Assembly (NCBI GenBank): GCA_044358425.1
Contig: CP054849.1
Coordinates: forward strand, 1,315,395-1,337,036
Direction: 5' to 3'
Length of the DNA stretch: 21,642 bases
Source of the DNA: Marine Group I thaumarchaeote
GTDB taxonomy: Archaea; Thermoproteota; Nitrososphaeria; Nitrososphaerales; Nitrosopumilaceae
The notes beneath the pieces were generated by a model. It saw nothing but the letters and a program-made list of their open reading frames with translations, was not told where the DNA came from and did no database searches. Positions 4,025 through 19,964 of the stretch are shown here, in pieces (the first letter of the stretch is position 1; each line of letters opens with the position of its first letter). The position numbers were made by a program, and so were the translations under genes.

Positions 4025-4815
4025 ACTTTTAGATCAGGATTAGTTTGTTCTTCTAAATTATATTTTGATTTGTATCCTCTTGGATTAATCATTAAATCTT
4101 TGTAAGTATATGTTGATGAGTTACCAATTATTACAGTACTTGTCATACCCAACTCTTCATCAAAATTTAGTAAATTATCTAAATTAGTCATTACAATTGT
4201 TTCAGATTCTCTATATGCACTTTTAATAATTGCAACAGGGGTAGTAGGTTTTCTATGTTTAAGCAGAATTTTTTGAGTATCTTGTAATTGATGAACTCGT
4301 TTCTTACTTTTAGGATTATAGATTACAAGTACAAAATCACCTTGAGCAGCTGATTCTACACGTTTTTGAATTATCTCCCAAGGTACCATCAAATCACTCA
4401 TACTAACAACAGCAAAATCTGTCATTAGTGGTGAACCAACAATTGATGCACATGAATTCAAAGCAGATACACCAGGAATAATTTCCACTTTAAGCTCATC
4501 AGAAGGATCCCAGCCTATTGTTGCAAGCGTTTCATAAATTAATCCAGCCATTCCATAAATTCCAGGATCACCACTAGAGACCAGAGAAACAATTTTTCCA
4601 GATTTTGCAAGATCAATACATTGATGTGCTCTTTCGACTTCTTGGGTCATAGCATATCGATGAATAGTTTTTCCTCCTATCAGATCTTGAACTAAATTAA
4701 CATAAGTTTCATATCCAACAATGGTATCACTTTCAGAAATTACTTCTTTTGCTCGAAATGTCATGTGATCATGATGTCCAGGACCAACACCAACAATGTA
4801 GAGTTTACCAGTCAA
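4021..4815 (-). CDS. cbiH: Precorrin-3B / cobalt-factor III C17-methyltransferase (cobalamin biosynthesis)
   Basis: GKLYIVGVGPG, IVGYETY, MTQEVERA, VSSGDPGIYGMAG, IPGVSA, GSPLMTDFAVVSMSD, IYNPKS, GMTSTVIIGNS, MINPRGY. Confidence 0.93.
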   Translation of the reverse strand: MTGKLYIVGVGPGHHDHMTFRAKEVISESDTIVGYETYVNLVQDLIGGKTIHRYAMTQEVERAHQCIDLAKSGKIVSLVSSGDPGIYGMAGLIYETLATIGWDPSDELKVEIIPGVSALNSCASIVGSPLMTDFAVVSMSDLMVPWEIIQKRVESAAQGDFVLVIYNPKSKKRVHQLQDTQKILLKHRKPTTPVAIIKSAYRESETIVMTNLDNLLNFDEELGMTSTVIIGNSSTYTYKDLMINPRGYKSKYNLEEQTNPDLKV

Positions 4816-13215: not shown

Positions 13216-14370
13216 CTAATTTTTAGAAAATTTGAATTTTGATTTCCAATTTGAAGTTGATTTCTTAGTTGGTTTTTTGGATAAATTATCCAACATGTCA
13301 TAAGTAATAGTAAATCCATTTCCAACCATAGTAGCATCCTTATTGTAATTTTCTTTATGAGGAACAAATTCATCAGCTAAGTCTTTAATTTTTTTAGTTT
13401 TAAGATCAAACAATCGTATCTTTTTACCATTTTCCAATTCAATAATTGCATCACCACTTAATCCTTGAATAGAAAAAGTTTCAAAAAATCTAATTGTACC
13501 ATTTTGTTTTAATTTAATTATACAATCATAAGTTAACTTGCTTCCATAAAATAAAATTTCACGTGCAGAAATAACTGCATCCTCTTCAACATTTAAAACA
13601 ATGATTGAATCTGCTGTGAGAGATACAGTATTTACAACATTTTCAGCAACAATTTTTCCTTCTGGTGCAGATATAGTTGTTCTGTGTTCTTGAATTTGAA
13701 AAACTCCAACTCTACCTTCTTTATCTTCAACTCTAAATTTTCTACCGTAAATATTACCTACAACTGCATTTCCATTATCTACAAAAATTTGTGCACCATT
13801 TTCAATTTTATATTTATTTTCTAGTGGTTCAATGAATTTAAAATCACCTTTAGTTAAATGAATATTAGTTTTATATTCTTGAGTCCATGAAGGGCTAGTA
13901 ATACTTCCTTGCATAATTATAGGTCCATCATAAGTTAAACTTCCAGCCATAAAATTACCTTTAATAGATAATGTTCCTGTTGCTTTTCTTTCTAATTCAA
14001 TTTCACCAAGAGTTTTAGAACCAAATAATCTAGTAGCAGTTGCATTTGAACGATTTAAAGCAGATGCCCATTCTTCAGCAGTTTTCATTTCTTTAGATAA
14101 TTCTTGACCTAAAATCTGATTTTTCCTTCTAACATCTTCTTCGCTTTCATCAGAATAAACTCTAGAGTTTTTGATTTTTTCGATATCTGTGTCAGGATAT
14201 TTTTTTCCAATTTTTAGATCATCGTATGCCTGTTTGATTTTAATGAATTGTTCATTTTCTCCTCCTCGATCTGAGTGAAATTGTAAAGCTAATCTTCTAA
14301 ATGCGTCCCTAATCTCTTTTTCAGTAGTTCCTTCTACAATACCTAAAATATCATAATTAGATTCTACCAT
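13216..14370 (-). CDS. J-domain (DnaJ-like) protein with HSD motif and a beta-rich C-terminal region
   Basis: NYDILGI...EIRDAFRRLALQFHSDRGG...FIKIKQAYDDL; no G/F-rich or zinc-finger region. Confidence 0.85.
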   Translation of the reverse strand: MVESNYDILGIVEGTTEKEIRDAFRRLALQFHSDRGGENEQFIKIKQAYDDLKIGKKYPDTDIEKIKNSRVYSDESEEDVRRKNQILGQELSKEMKTAEEWASALNRSNATATRLFGSKTLGEIELERKATGTLSIKGNFMAGSLTYDGPIIMQGSITSPSWTQEYKTNIHLTKGDFKFIEPLENKYKIENGAQIFVDNGNAVVGNIYGRKFRVEDKEGRVGVFQIQEHRTTISAPEGKIVAENVVNTVSLTADSIIVLNVEEDAVISAREILFYGSKLTYDCIIKLKQNGTIRFFETFSIQGLSGDAIIELENGKKIRLFDLKTKKIKDLADEFVPHKENYNKDATMVGNGFTITYDMLDNLSKKPTKKSTSNWKSKFKFSKN

Positions 14371-14476
14371 TTTTTTATCAACCTAGTTAGGATCTGTAAT
14401 CATTTTCCTATACTTGTAGTTTATCACATTAGAGAATATCAATGATTTGGAAATTCTTTTAAAAATACTCGTAGAG

Positions 14477-15154
14477 TTAATTTTTTCTTGTTTTTAACAA
14501 GGCAATAATTGCTATTATGATGCCAATAATTGCAATTGGCAATACTACAACATATGCTCCATCTATTTCATCCTGTTTTTTATCATTAGAAACTTCTAAA
14601 TTTTTAATGGTATTTTCTAATGAAGTAATTCTTTGTTCAAGTTTTGAATTATCATCAATTACTTCAGTTAAAGCCAAATCAGCAGATTGAGGAAATTCAA
14701 TATATGATCTTTCTGCAATTGGTGGTGGATGCATGGATAAATTAACAGGTGTCTCCAATATTTTTCCAATTAGATTTGCCTGAAAATATCCTGATACAGT
14801 AGGAGTAATAAAGGCATAATATTTTCCGGGAATGTCATGATCTGCTACAAAAGGTAGAGTAATAGTTTGAGTGTTATCATGTACAAATTGAATTTTTAAT
14901 AATTTTCTTAATCCTTCAATACCATTTTTAAATTCTTGAGAATTTGCACATTCTAGTAAAATCGGAATATCAGGACATTCTTCTAACGGACTCACATACA
15001 ATTCAAGTCCATTGGTCTCACCTGATATAACGGGTTCATTCATCCAACCAATTTCCACACGATATTCCCCAACTGCATCAACTGTATGCCCATATGCAAT
15101 TCCAGCAAAACTGGGAATAAGCAATAATGAAAGTAAAAGAAATTTGTAATTCAT
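14477..15154 (-). CDS. Secreted, C-terminally membrane-anchored hypothetical protein
   Basis: Signal peptide ending IAYG|H, IGWMNEP motif, coiled coil, C-terminal TM helix plus KTRKN tail. Confidence 0.8.
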   Translation of the reverse strand: MNYKFLLLSLLLIPSFAGIAYGHTVDAVGEYRVEIGWMNEPVISGETNGLELYVSPLEECPDIPILLECANSQEFKNGIEGLRKLLKIQFVHDNTQTITLPFVADHDIPGKYYAFITPTVSGYFQANLIGKILETPVNLSMHPPPIAERSYIEFPQSADLALTEVIDDNSKLEQRITSLENTIKNLEVSNDKKQDEIDGAYVVVLPIAIIGIIIAIIALLKTRKN

Positions 15155-15206: not shown

Positions 15207-16652
15207 CTAAGCATCCGCATACATAGAAACTTCCCAAGCGGTAGGAGTTTGTGCAAATGCAGTATATTCCTTGTATTTTAATTCAGAATAAGTTTCAAGA
15301 AAATCTTTTGTAAAAACTTCCTCTAAAAAGTTAGAATCACTACTTAGAGCATCTAGTGAACCCTTTAGTGATACAGGTAATGAACCAATATTATATTCTC
15401 TTTTCTTTTCTGAAGAAAGTTTGTAAACATTTTCTTCAATAGGATCTCCAGGATCAATTTTATTTTTTATTCCATCAAGACCTGCTAATAGTAATGCAGC
15501 TTCTAACAGATAGATATTTGCAGTAGGATCAGGTACACGATATTCAATTCTTTTACTTTTTTCTTGATTTCTATTATACATTGGAATCCTTATTGCTGTT
15601 GAACGATTTGCTAATCCCCAACAAACATTGACTGGTGCCTCAAATCCAGGAACAAGTCTTTTGTAAGAATTAGTTGTAGGATTTGAAATAGCACATAATG
15701 CTGATGCATGACTAAGTATTCCACCAACATAATATCTACCAGTTTGACTCATTTGAGCAACTTCATCATCGTGATCATACATGACATTAGTGTTATTTTT
15801 CCATAAACTTTGATGTGTGTGCATAGCTGATGCATTATCACCAAAAATTGGTTTTGGCATAAAAGTTGCAACTTTATTTTTTCTTTTAGCTTTGACTTTA
15901 ACTAAATTTTTAACTGCAATGACATTATCAGCCATTCCAATCATTTCATCATAAACTAAATTAATTTCACATTGACCTGAAGTTGCAACTTCATGATGTT
16001 CTGCTTCAATTTTTATTCCAAAATAATTATACAAATCATCACATACATCTTTTCTAAATCCTTCAAGTGTATCCTTTGGTTGTGATGGATAATATCCTTC
16101 TTTGATATCTATAGCAGTACTGACATTTCCTTTGGCCCATGGTGATTCTTTAGATTCAATTGAATAACCTGAACCACCACCTGAATGGGTTGCAGCATAT
16201 GGTGATGGATAAACACTAATTGAATCAAAAACAAAAAATTCAATTTCAGGACCCCAATTTGTGTGAGTAAATCCAAATTCTTCAAGTTTTTCTGCTGACT
16301 TATGTGCAATTCCTCTAGAATCTCTATTGTATCTATCTTCTTTGTTTGTACTCCCATCATAAAGATCACAAAAGATCCTTGCATTTTTTCTATGTCCTGG
16401 ATCATAGTCACTTGGTAAAATTTTAAATGAATTTGGATCAGGCATTAAAATCATATCAGAATTATTAACAGATTTGAATCCAACAATTGAACTAGCATCT
16501 AGTTTTTCAAGACCATTTACAAAACTAGTTTCATCAATTGCATAACTAGGCATTCCAACATTATGAAGTTCACCAAAAATATCTACAAACCAAAAATCAA
16601 TGAAAGAGATTTTTTCATCTTCAATAGTTTGTAGTACTTGTTTAGAATCCAA
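15207..16652 (-). CDS. glnA: Glutamine synthetase type I
   Basis: DASSIVGF, SDMILMPD, GPEIEFF, EAEHHEVATSGQCEI, ATFMPKP, MHTHQSL, NSYKRLVPGFEAP, NRSTAIRIP, RIEYRVPDP. Confidence 0.96.
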   Translation of the reverse strand: MDSKQVLQTIEDEKISFIDFWFVDIFGELHNVGMPSYAIDETSFVNGLEKLDASSIVGFKSVNNSDMILMPDPNSFKILPSDYDPGHRKNARIFCDLYDGSTNKEDRYNRDSRGIAHKSAEKLEEFGFTHTNWGPEIEFFVFDSISVYPSPYAATHSGGGSGYSIESKESPWAKGNVSTAIDIKEGYYPSQPKDTLEGFRKDVCDDLYNYFGIKIEAEHHEVATSGQCEINLVYDEMIGMADNVIAVKNLVKVKAKRKNKVATFMPKPIFGDNASAMHTHQSLWKNNTNVMYDHDDEVAQMSQTGRYYVGGILSHASALCAISNPTTNSYKRLVPGFEAPVNVCWGLANRSTAIRIPMYNRNQEKSKRIEYRVPDPTANIYLLEAALLLAGLDGIKNKIDPGDPIEENVYKLSSEKKREYNIGSLPVSLKGSLDALSSDSNFLEEVFTKDFLETYSELKYKEYTAFAQTPTAWEVSMYADA

Positions 16653-16739
16653 TTACTAAATCTTAGAAATTATTTTACTAATGTTGTCTAGTAAGATAGA
16701 ATTGTCAATAAAGTCAGGTAATTTTCAGGGTAAAAACTC

Positions 16740-18086
16740 TCAATTGAGTTTATTTTTTTGGATTTCCATCATTCCTTCTTCAAAGAAGAATTTTTCATCA
16801 AATATGGGTTTTAAATCATCCAACCATATTGCATTTTCATCATATTTTGCGAAAAATGGCATATCTACCCAATCAGGATTTCGGCCTTGTATGAATCTCA
16901 AGACAATTACTTTCTGATCATTTACACTTGTAGTTCCCATTACATGGACTTTTCCGGGTGTTGCAGACATACTTGGTCCACGAACAGTTCTAGCTATTCC
17001 ACTAACCGAAGAATATGCTTTCTTAAAAATTTCATGCGCTTTAATTAAAGAAATTCCAAAGTAATGTTGAGCACCTGTATCTCTAACTACAAACATGTAA
17101 TATGGAATACAACCTAATTCAACTTGTTTTGTCCACATTTTTGCCCACATTTCTGCATCATCATTGATATGTGTTAAAAGAGGAGATTGAGTTCTAATTT
17201 GAGCACCTGTTTTTCTAAGTTCTTTAATTGCATCCTTTACAGCTGGTGTAGATAGTTCATTTAGATGATTGAAATGAGCCATAAATGCAAGATGCAAACC
17301 ACTTTCAGTGATTTTCTTAAAAACTTGTAACATTTCTTGAGAATCTGAATCTGTCAAAAACTTGTAAGGCCAATATGCAAGTGCCTTTGTTCCAATTCTA
17401 ATAGTTTTAAGATTTGGAAGATTTGCATCGATTATTGCATCAATATATTTTGAAAAGATTTTTGCTTTCATGATCATTGGATCACCTCCTGTAAATAATA
17501 CATCTGTAATTTCAGGATGTTCTCTAACATATTGAACCAGTTGTTCACCTTCTTGCATTGCAAATTTCATTTCATCCATTCCAACAAATTGTGGCCATCT
17601 AAAACAAAAGCTGCAATATGCATGACAAGTTTGACTTTGGCTGGGGAAAAATAAACAAGTTTCTTTGTATTTATGTTGCATTCCGTATAATTTTGTACCA
17701 TCATTTAATGTTGGAACATTAAGTTCCATTTGGCCTGCAGGATGTGGATTTAATTGTAATCTAATTTCATTTGCAATTTTAGTTATTTCTTTTTTATCAG
17801 CATTATTTTTTAATGCATCAGCCATCTTATCATAATGTTCAGGTTTTAACATTCCTTTTTGTGGAAATGTTAAAACAAAAATAGGATCATTTGGAATATT
17901 ATTCCAATCAATTAATTGTTCAACGACATAATTATTTGCTTTAAATGGCAATACATTTCCTACAACCTCCATCTCAAATTGTTTTTCTTCAGAAAGTTGT
18001 TGAATTTGTGGAAGTTGACGAAAATTTGATAATGTATATGATTTCATAGAAGGAGTTTCGTTCCAAATTGATTTTTGATAGGTCAT
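16740..18086 (-). CDS. KamA-family radical SAM/PLP amino acid 2,3-aminomutase-like protein
   Basis: QHKY, CHAYCSFCFR (CxxxCxxC), DVLFTGGDP, IRIGTK, HFNH, QSPLL, INDD, PYY, PGK (PLP Lys). ATG 18086 (MTYQK) preferred to the ORF-track start at 18170. Confidence 0.88.
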   Translation of the reverse strand: MTYQKSIWNETPSMKSYTLSNFRQLPQIQQLSEEKQFEMEVVGNVLPFKANNYVVEQLIDWNNIPNDPIFVLTFPQKGMLKPEHYDKMADALKNNADKKEITKIANEIRLQLNPHPAGQMELNVPTLNDGTKLYGMQHKYKETCLFFPSQSQTCHAYCSFCFRWPQFVGMDEMKFAMQEGEQLVQYVREHPEITDVLFTGGDPMIMKAKIFSKYIDAIIDANLPNLKTIRIGTKALAYWPYKFLTDSDSQEMLQVFKKITESGLHLAFMAHFNHLNELSTPAVKDAIKELRKTGAQIRTQSPLLTHINDDAEMWAKMWTKQVELGCIPYYMFVVRDTGAQHYFGISLIKAHEIFKKAYSSVSGIARTVRGPSMSATPGKVHVMGTTSVNDQKVIVLRFIQGRNPDWVDMPFFAKYDENAIWLDDLKPIFDEKFFFEEGMMEIQKNKLN

Positions 18087-18230
18087 TTTAAGATTAGTGC
18101 TGAAACCCTTGTTAAAGGTTACATCAATTGTAGGCACAAAATAATGAGTAATAATTGGTAGTTTTTTCAATATAATCCTGATCGCTTAACATTTTATTCT
18201 AGAAAATAGAACAAAGTAAGACGACAAATT

Positions 18231-19964
18231 ATGAGCGAAGACGATATTTCACAAATTTCTGTTGGCGAATTTGAAACTGTTTCACAATTATTGGCATCAT
18301 CAGAATCACTTCAATTAGCATTTATCATCATGATAGTTGGAATAATTGCAATTGTTGCTGCTTATAGAAAATTTTCGTCATTAATTAAATCAAAAAAAAT
18401 TTTTTACACTAGACCACATTTGTCAAAATTTGTACAAAATGCAGTATTACCATTTTTTGCAATTGCATTAATTTCATCAACAAATGCATATATTCAAACT
18501 TCAGAATTATTTGAAAATGATTCAAATTCATTAACAATGGAATTAACTCCAGAAGAAACTTTTGCAAAAATTCTCAATACTTTTAATATTTTAGTTATAG
18601 GCTATACCATTTCCCATTTAATTCCCATTATGCTTACAAAACGAGATAAATCAATTCTTGAAAAAGAAGATTTTGGTATGTGGTATGATATGCAAGGTTT
18701 TGTTGACGATAATGATCTTTTTCATAAATTATACAAATGGGTTGCACCAACAATTACACCAGAAGATTTTACTGATGAAGAATTTAAAAAATTATGTAAA
18801 ACAAAAGAAGGAATAAATCAATTAGAACAACATCGTAATTCAAAGGGAAATCCTATTGGAAGTTATGAAAAATTAGTCAATAATCCATTTGAAAAATGGA
18901 AAGAATCTGAAAGAGCAAAATATTTGAAATATTTTAACAACTGTGTTACTGGAAATAATCAATCAGGAAGAAAATTAAAACCAGGAGCAAAACCAGATGA
19001 AATATTTCCAATAGACATATGGAGAGAAGAGAAGAGAATCAATGGTTTTGAGCCATTAATTCCTAGTAATAGACCACCGGGATATGCACGAAAGAAAAGA
19101 GAAGGAATTCCTAAATCTTTTAAACAAATTTTACCAGTAGGAATTTTTGTTGCAACAATTTTAGGAATTGTATCATGGTGGGGAGTAGATTTGTTTGTAT
19201 TAGCAACAGCAACAGGCGGACTTGCAATTGGTATCGGTTTAGCTCTACAAGAAACAATGCAAAATTATTTTGCCTATTTGATGATTAGAAAAGACAATAT
19301 TTTCAAAGAAGGAGAAAGAATTCAATTAGAATCAGGGTATAACGGAATTGTTCATAAAATAACACCTAGAGTTACATATGTTAGAGATGCATTACATGAA
19401 TCAGTAGCAATAATTCCTACTAGACAGTTGGTGACAGCACAAATTATTAACTATACAAAAGAAAACAAACTTGTCCCAGCACTCGTTACAGTAGGTGTTT
19501 CATATCTCAATGATCCAAAACAGGTGGCAGCAATTTTAGTTAAAATTGGAAAACGTGGCATGGTTGAAATTAAAGATGCTAAAGGAAGACACCTAGTTCG
19601 ACAAAATAGATGTCCAAACTTGGATGAAAATAAATCAAGTTGTGGTTGTGATAAGGATTTACATGTAGATATTTCTCAACCAGTTGTACGATTTAATCAA
19701 TTCAATGATTCTGCTTTGGATTTTTCAATGTGGTTGTACGTAAAGGATTACGGTTCACAATTTAAGACAAAAACAGATCTAAGAATGATAATGTATGAAG
19801 AATTCAAAAAATATGATATTAGAATTCCATGGCCAATTAGAACTGTCTATCAAGGAGATGAGAAGAGAGAGCAAATAGAAATTGATGAAAAAGATGAATT
19901 TAGAAATAAAGTAATAGATGAATATGGATTAGGTGATTTAGCTCGTGGAGAAGGCGACGAATAA
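18231..19964 (+). CDS. MscS-family small-conductance mechanosensitive channel with large insertions
   Basis: GGLAIGIGLALQETMQNYFA pore helix, FKEGERI, GIVHKI, IIPT, IINYT, VGVSY, PVVRF, IRIPWP. Confidence 0.9.
   Translation: MSEDDISQISVGEFETVSQLLASSESLQLAFIIMIVGIIAIVAAYRKFSSLIKSKKIFYTRPHLSKFVQNAVLPFFAIALISSTNAYIQTSELFENDSNSLTMELTPEETFAKILNTFNILVIGYTISHLIPIMLTKRDKSILEKEDFGMWYDMQGFVDDNDLFHKLYKWVAPTITPEDFTDEEFKKLCKTKEGINQLEQHRNSKGNPIGSYEKLVNNPFEKWKESERAKYLKYFNNCVTGNNQSGRKLKPGAKPDEIFPIDIWREEKRINGFEPLIPSNRPPGYARKKREGIPKSFKQILPVGIFVATILGIVSWWGVDLFVLATATGGLAIGIGLALQETMQNYFAYLMIRKDNIFKEGERIQLESGYNGIVHKITPRVTYVRDALHESVAIIPTRQLVTAQIINYTKENKLVPALVTVGVSYLNDPKQVAAILVKIGKRGMVEIKDAKGRHLVRQNRCPNLDENKSSCGCDKDLHVDISQPVVRFNQFNDSALDFSMWLYVKDYGSQFKTKTDLRMIMYEEFKKYDIRIPWPIRTVYQGDEKREQIEIDEKDEFRNKVIDEYGLGDLARGEGDE

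Follow-up and report, generated by a model that had tools for sequence, protein, structure and literature searches.

A probable glutamate 2,3-aminomutase beside an MscS-family channel and an accessory glutamine synthetase in Nitrosopumilaceae

We analyzed a 21,642-nucleotide stretch of DNA (the window) from a Marine Group I thaumarchaeote of the family Nitrosopumilaceae (assembly GCA_044358425.1, contig CP054849.1, positions 1,315,395 to 1,337,036), and we propose that its KamA-family aminomutase makes beta-glutamate, that the MscS-family channel encoded next to it is a dedicated valve, and that the neighboring glutamine synthetase (GS), here called GS-A, is an accessory in the same economy. 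We give this reading a probability of about 0.65. An initial annotation of the window had already pointed out that the aminomutase gene is co-oriented with and 87 nt upstream of the GS gene and divergent from the MscS gene; our open reading frame (ORF) calls agree, and this three-gene arrangement is confirmed.

In the mechanism we propose, the aminomutase would convert L-glutamate into beta-glutamate, which is the principal organic solute in Nitrosopumilus, and the divergent MscS would serve as a dedicated emergency valve on osmotic downshift. GS-A, kept only alongside the aminomutase and putatively transcribed from its own promoter, would act in the same glutamate/beta-glutamate economy, where it may amidate beta-glutamate and would be dispensable for the core function. 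The beta-glutamate gene and its valve would have entered the family through its ancestor. Gene identities, fold, altered motifs, distribution, co-occurrence and the riboswitches ahead of orthologs are observed, and the substrate, the product and the parts played by the valve and GS-A are inferred. The features discussed below are the following.

16740..18086, minus strand: probable glutamate 2,3-aminomutase of 448 aa, an aminomutase of the KamA family with radical S-adenosylmethionine (SAM)/pyridoxal phosphate (PLP) chemistry; frame open up to TTG 18170
18231..19964, plus strand: mechanosensitive channel of the MscS family (PF00924, PF21082), 577 aa, its N terminus lengthened by a long membrane/soluble part
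15207..16652, minus strand: GS-A, accessory type I glutamine synthetase paralog, 481 aa, with a DNASAMH loop (TIGR00653, PF00120, PF03951)
16653..16739, minus strand: aminomutase-to-GS-A spacer, 87 nt, holding the palindrome TTACTA-N8-TAGTAA (16675-16694)
18087..18230: divergent spacer with AACCTTTAACAAGGG (18106-18120, minus strand) and a conserved TAGAATACAAAGGTTAA-like element on the MscS side, from a by-eye alignment of 32 orthologous spacers
13216-15154: after GS-A, a 225-aa protein that matches no family and a 384-aa protein whose sole recognized domain is an N-terminal DnaJ domain

Identity and substrate of the aminomutase

The aminomutase fits no curated subfamily. It scores 140.5 bits with the KamA family model TIGR00238, under the cut-off of 199.2 (a comparison that covers the window's protein only), and all 43 members of its subfamily match this model at E <= 1e-10, the best at 1.3e-43. 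All six NCBIfam subfamily models score it far under their cut-offs, among them those for AblA (TIGR03820, 123 bits vs 525), EpmB (109 vs 369), arginine aminomutase (101 vs 600) and Eam (TIGR04368, 96 vs 650), and the protein atlas clusters it under generic "KamA / lysine 2,3-aminomutase" names only. Its sole sequence match in the PDB is lysine 2,3-aminomutase (LAM) 2A5H, at E 4.7e-20. An AlphaFold model built on a 16-sequence alignment (mean pLDDT 89.9) shares the fold of 2A5H, with TM values of 0.65/0.71 and E 1.4e-18, and the runner-up structure follows at 2e-5.

Alongside this fold, the Clostridium subterminale enzyme 2A5H (AblA/KamA) and the window's protein have in common the CxxxCxxC and GGDP motifs and a lysine at the PLP-lysine position, but they are only ~20% identical and HRY in LAM is HKY here. 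CxxxCxxC reads CHAYCSFC, with C154, C158 and C161 invariant in the 43 subfamily members and in the 16 aligned sequences. K379, conserved in at least 90% of the subfamily, aligns with the PLP-binding Lys337 of LAM in HMMER, and MAFFT places this loop differently. C268 of 2A5H (NDC), which we take to be a zinc ligand, aligns with an aspartate (NDD).

A further difference lies in the pocket. In LAM, two aspartates (Asp293 and Asp330) bind the side chain of lysine and its epsilon-amino group. R335 and D336 of the window's protein are invariant or nearly so in the subfamily, and the clade motif V-x-R-D-T-G puts an invariant Arg335 where 2A5H and two annotated AblA proteins carry the first Asp. Those two AblA proteins, one of which adjoins ablB, keep both aspartates. 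At the second position, the residue is Ser372 in the ungapped HMMER alignment or Arg369 if the V-x-P anchor is followed, and the acidic residue is gone either way. In clostridial Eam, the lysine-binding pair is replaced by Lys and Asn. These residues suggest that the window's protein is a probable glutamate 2,3-aminomutase making beta-glutamate.

We rejected an identity as lysine 2,3-aminomutase, as both lysine-binding aspartates are gone, the AblA score is 123 bits against 525, and neither an AblB nor an EpmA partner is present. AblB (TIGR03827) has no match anywhere in the genome, and matches to EpmA (TIGR00462) reach only 77 bits vs a cut-off of 287. The initial annotation had reported that an AblB or EF-P ligase partner is absent from the window, which holds across the whole genome, and its choice of glutamate as the substrate agrees with Arg335 at the first Asp position and the loss of the second Asp. 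Two other family genomes carry a second, distant KamA-like ORF of 392 aa and 30% identity (G096:C1:302541-303410 and G148:C6:7080-7946). An "ablA" of Ilyobacter polytropus (L181:2863-5013) encodes 716 aa, far above the usual length, and has an aminotransferase-fold gene on either side.

The proposed product is abundant in these organisms. In N. maritimus, no identified metabolite is more abundant than beta-glutamic acid (~730 mM; PMC8269262), and it increases with ocean depth according to Heal et al. The suggestion that beta-glutamate is an archaeal solute is therefore borne out within the genus, where it is dominant. In the literature that we searched on beta-glutamate and aminomutases in Nitrosopumilus, Thaumarchaeota and ammonia-oxidizing archaea (AOA), we found no gene assignment. 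The main texts of papers on AOA osmoadaptation deal with ectoine, betaine, spermidine, transporters and channels only and name no beta-glutamate gene, which their supplements, unseen here, may list. The route had been called unrecognized, and this description stands for the gene assignment in the searchable literature and fails for the metabolite, which was already known. No ectoine synthase was found above the Pfam cut-off in the window's genome (C1:516294-516539 reaches 21 bits vs 27). N. maritimus is reported to have ectoine and hydroxyectoine, and the strain studied here, unlike N. maritimus, probably cannot make ectoine.

A second line of evidence comes from secondary metabolism. Homologs at 45-52% identity are found on actinobacterial and Mycetohabitans replicons. 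The homolog of Streptomyces sp. NBC_00334 (45% identity over 417 aa, with the RDTG and GPxMSxxxGK signatures kept) lies in a type I polyketide synthase (PKS) cluster, flanked by a proline-iminopeptidase-family hydrolase on one side and a PLP enzyme on the other and with an AMP-binding protein next, the roles given to the hydrolase and the AMP-binding protein being presumed. The layout of PKS, radical SAM aminomutase and PLP enzyme matches the description of incednine-type clusters. In the incednine cluster, IdnL4 is thought to supply the decarboxylase IdnL3 with beta-glutamate formed from L-glutamate, a role backed by gene disruption, with in vitro activity not observed (PMC11284099). IdnL4 differs from the window's enzyme in belonging to secondary metabolism and in being followed by a decarboxylase (PMC11284099).

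A third line of evidence comes from orthologs of the aminomutase outside AOA. In an Rfam scan that covered 32 of the 59 non-AOA loci, seven had a cyclic di-AMP (c-di-AMP) riboswitch (RF00379) immediately ahead of the ortholog and on its strand, at 69-97 bits vs a cut-off of 38. All seven are from Chloroflexota (7/8 loci of this phylum), and the riboswitches lie at the following positions.

L075:3824-3962
L113:4719-4859
L131:7666-7804
L080:7646-7790
L082:7623-7767
L126:4090-4237
L129:7761-7905

As c-di-AMP governs potassium and compatible-solute homeostasis, the riboswitch-bearing orthologs are under osmoregulatory control. L113 has a second RF00379 riboswitch at 4465-4599, on the opposite strand, which faces the divergent gene.

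We consider it improbable that the aminomutase uses another substrate, such as glutamine, 2-aminoadipate, another acidic or polar amino acid or a protein-bound residue, and that the beta-glutamate of AOA comes from elsewhere. The enzyme matches no curated model, other homologs lie in nonribosomal peptide synthetase clusters of unknown product, and an aminotransferase-fold neighbor occurs at 12 of the 59 bacterial loci, all of which would suit such a substrate, as would the CoA-dependent route to beta-glutamate proposed for methanogens (PMC1224877). However, the invariant basic residue at the lysine-binding Asp position suits an acidic side chain, beta-glutamate is very high in the genus, the incednine-type context ties the aminomutase clade to glutamate, and control by c-di-AMP fits an osmolyte.

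Two other glutamate 2,3-aminomutases offer a comparison for the beta-glutamate assignment. Clostridioides difficile Eam, reportedly described by Ruzicka and Frey in 2007, would catalyze the same reaction and also has a basic residue at the first Asp position, but it belongs to a different clade, as its low-scoring model indicates. Clostridial Eam is catabolic and found in anaerobes. In 2022, Tunckanat et al. (Biochemistry 61:1077) reportedly described a methanogen glutamate 2,3-aminomutase of the KamA family that makes beta-glutamate for salt tolerance and is said to have an N-terminal extension of ~160 aa. The window's 448-aa protein differs from this description in having no extension, its residue 103 aligning with LAM residue 78. 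Methanogen names were sought among N-terminally extended homologs, and none appeared.

The length of 448 aa depends on the start site. The ORF at 16740-18170(-) spans 476 aa to the first TTG. Nitrosopumilus database proteins have 448 aa and cover 95-100% of the query started at ATG 18086. AACCTTTAACAAGGG, 20-34 nt upstream of this ATG, is strongly conserved in the orthologous spacers aligned by eye, G+C-rich ones included, and looks like a promoter element. The ATG at 18086 is most likely the start.

Distribution of the aminomutase and the neighboring channel

Within the class, the window's family has the ortholog in 92 of 114 genomes, and it was not found in 86 genomes from 13 other families. 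In a sample of 151 family genomes, 110 carry the aminomutase at strong E-values, and some genera are without it (0/5 genomes). These counts include three genomes flagged as unpublished (G077, G092 and G093); leaving them out gives 109 positive genomes (n=148) and does not change the GS-A and MscS counts. The closest relatives outside the family are bacterial, with 57-69% identity, from Bacteroidota, Chloroflexota, Ignavibacteria, Balneolales, sulfur-oxidizing Gammaproteobacteria and Persephonella, and Thermoplasmatota are also among the hosts. The simplest reading is that the aminomutase reached the base of the family by gene transfer.

The 577-aa channel is a member of the MscS family, with both the beta domain (PF00924, residues 342-410, 32.1 bits, cut-off 20.2) and the C-terminal domain (PF21082, residues 475-532, 28 bits, cut-off 21) found. 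It is divergent from the aminomutase in 28/30 near loci, 16/20 more distant family loci and 20/21 named loci, and it remains next to the aminomutase where GS-A has been lost. The MscS ortholog occurs in 93 of the 151 family genomes. All but one of these (92) also carry the aminomutase, and the assembly of the remaining genome is fragmented. The pairing of aminomutase and MscS suggested for the window is conserved, and the channel is nested within aminomutase-bearing genomes. GS is downstream of the aminomutase in 27/30 near loci (three partial or broken), 10/20 distant loci and 11/21 named loci. The arrangement within the family exceeds chance.

A related layout is described for Ca. Methanoperedens, where kamA-ablB adjoins the MscS-like gene ynaI (PMC11337218). 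There too an MscS-type channel adjoins a gene for a beta-amino-acid osmolyte, but the window's channel is divergent, has 577 aa, and its solute would be anionic beta-glutamate.

In bacterial loci, the only recurrent neighbor of the aminomutase is a class I/II aminotransferase-fold protein, at 12 of 59 (L098:1946-3307 and 11 others), for which decarboxylation or transamination of beta-glutamate is a possible function. This PLP protein and the PLP enzyme of the Streptomyces PKS cluster (L148:13353-14630) share 35% identity (E 4e-66).

An accessory glutamine synthetase

GS-A scores 520.8 bits with TIGR00653 (cut-off 429) and also matches PF00120 and PF03951. It is one of two GS genes in the genome and is 43% identical to the other, GS-B (C1:1348090-1349559). 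Some GS is present in 148/151 family genomes, and genomes with a single GS carry the GS-B type, which is 45-49% identical to GS-A. GS-A is an accessory paralog, and the GS-B type is near-universal in the family. The 78 family genomes with GS-A comprise 76 that are aminomutase-positive and 2 that are negative; in these two GS-A lies at a contig edge, and the aminomutase would fall beyond it. In two patchy genera the aminomutase occurs in 4/9 genomes each, and GS-A is present in precisely those four. Conversely, 30 aminomutase-positive genomes have no GS-A, 12/47 Nitrosopumilus among them. In a very close relative GS-A is split by a TGA (L002; G060:C1:17603-18541), and in a Nitrosopumilus-like metagenome-assembled genome it is in three pieces (L055:9440-10701); these broken copies suggest ongoing loss.

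GS-A also has a distinctive loop, which we mapped on the S. typhimurium GS. Motifs for metal and substrate line up with those of that enzyme except that NGSGMH has become NASAMH. The DNASAMH loop is invariant in 26/26 GS-A sequences; GS-B has D[AS]GSGMH, and DNGSGMH is found in the GS of S. typhimurium, Synechocystis, a Dehalococcoidia member and a sister family, whose GS is 51-52% identical to GS-A and which has no aminomutase. Only four positions separate the 26 GS-A sequences from GS-B, the sister-family GS and a Dehalococcoidia GS, and two of these are G265A and G267A. The NGSGMH loop touches the amino end of bound glutamate, and a switch to a beta-amino substrate might call for changes such as these two Gly-to-Ala replacements. 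In a related genus we also observed a third GS (L176:2037-3548, G091:C70), 52% identical to GS-A and with the intermediate loop DNGSAMH.

The spacer upstream of GS-A contains the palindrome TTACTA-N8-TAGTAA, 23 nt before the GS-A start. Its ATTAGTAAA-like half was seen by eye, uncounted, in many orthologous spacers, and the strict palindrome is present in 12/43 distinct spacers. The ATTAGTAAA element is probably a separate promoter or operator. A genome-wide search gave 18 loose matches vs 2-5 in shuffles, and we claim no regulon, as there is no coherent gene set among them.

The initial annotation went further and saw a full three-step module, in which a dedicated GS-A takes glutamate through beta-glutamate to beta-glutamine, a neutral compound that would serve as osmolyte or nitrogen store and leave through MscS. 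We regard this as possible but doubtful. The GS-A nesting, its status as an extra paralog where the GS-B type is the sole GS in its absence, the changes G265A and G267A among the four separating positions, and the DNGSGMH retained by sister-family GS without an aminomutase speak for it. There is also a precedent in Methanohalophilus portucalensis, whose type I GS, supplied with beta-glutamate, forms beta-glutamine (Robinson et al. 2001 via PMC1224877); there, an ordinary GS amidates beta-glutamate, in contrast to the separate DNASAMH paralog of the window, a candidate for such an activity. However, beta-glutamine has no report for AOA in the literature covered, GS-A is absent from many aminomutase-positive genomes and broken in near relatives, it carries its own upstream element, and its model score and complete set of catalytic residues are those of an ordinary GlnA. 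Five bacterial genomes with an orthologous aminomutase contain no GS-A-like gene, the best match being 44% identical. The claim that GS-A, with its DNASAMH loop, is a dedicated beta-glutamine synthetase in coastal and benthic AOA is likewise tentative and on the unlikely side. Of the proposed link to GS, what holds is the nesting and the clade-specific loop; what counts against it is the absence from 30 positive genomes and the separate upstream element.

The adjacency could also be meaningless, the strong synteny of streamlined genomes keeping three housekeeping genes side by side that have nothing to do with each other, which we consider quite improbable. The block Prs-MscS-aminomutase-GS-hyp225-DnaJ, which includes the 225-aa and DnaJ-domain genes behind GS-A, is syntenic in many relatives, no comparable neighborhood is found outside AOA, and no listed RNA contig crosses the 87-nt spacer, as such an explanation would have it. 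Against it, the MscS ortholog and GS-A are nested in aminomutase-positive genomes while GS-B is near-universal, the aminomutase, MscS and GS-A are jointly missing in several genera, and MscS stays by the aminomutase after GS-A loss. Regarding expression, marine metatranscriptome contigs from three studies (four RNA runs) cover all three genes, with at least 99% coverage in X1, X2 and X4. The spacer at 16653-16739 is bridged by none of the listed contigs; GS contigs stop at 16639, 16540 and 16558, and aminomutase contigs start at 16830, 16827 and 16886. Such contigs cannot show transcripts, levels or operon structure.

Beta-glutamate in ammonia-oxidizing archaea

Several points weigh against beta-glutamate synthesis by the aminomutase with MscS and GS-A as partners. 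In methanogens, nuclear magnetic resonance labeling argued against a glutamate aminomutase, and a CoA-dependent route was proposed instead (PMC1224877). IdnL4 is compared here only through the Streptomyces cluster homolog, and by context. A radical SAM enzyme would be working in an aerobe. The ortholog is also present in loci named Nitrosotalea, presumably an acid-soil genus, and because of these loci and its absence from the 86 genomes of the 13 other families, its presence cannot simply be read as a sign of marine life. In all 59 non-AOA loci, the ortholog lacks both this GS and this MscS as neighbors. Lastly, as the genomes compared are kin and not independent, and single deletions can remove neighboring genes together, the nested pattern overstates functional dependence. 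The osmolyte proposal of the initial annotation is upheld in part: beta-glutamate as a solute, a non-lysine enzyme and the pairing with MscS speak for it, and the lack of GS-A and MscS beside bacterial orthologs and the frequent loss of GS-A speak against it.

The host genome, a single contig of 1.36 Mb with ~30% G+C, contains an archaeal amoA (386 bits), and its proteins find their best database matches under the name Nitrosopumilus. Ammonia-oxidizing archaea rank with the most numerous cells of the ocean, and with ~0.7 M internal beta-glutamate they hold a large deep-sea pool of carbon and nitrogen. Assigning a gene to the synthesis of this solute would provide a marker for metagenomes and transcriptomes and would correct a widespread "lysine 2,3-aminomutase" annotation that reaches many bacterial phyla, and it offers a testable case of a radical SAM aminomutase in an aerobe. 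GS-A is a defined candidate for beta-glutamine synthesis. If it has this role, part of the anionic beta-glutamate pool would be turned into neutral beta-glutamine, both an osmolyte and a nitrogen store, and GS-A would be the first known GS paralog to have evolved for a beta-amino acid.

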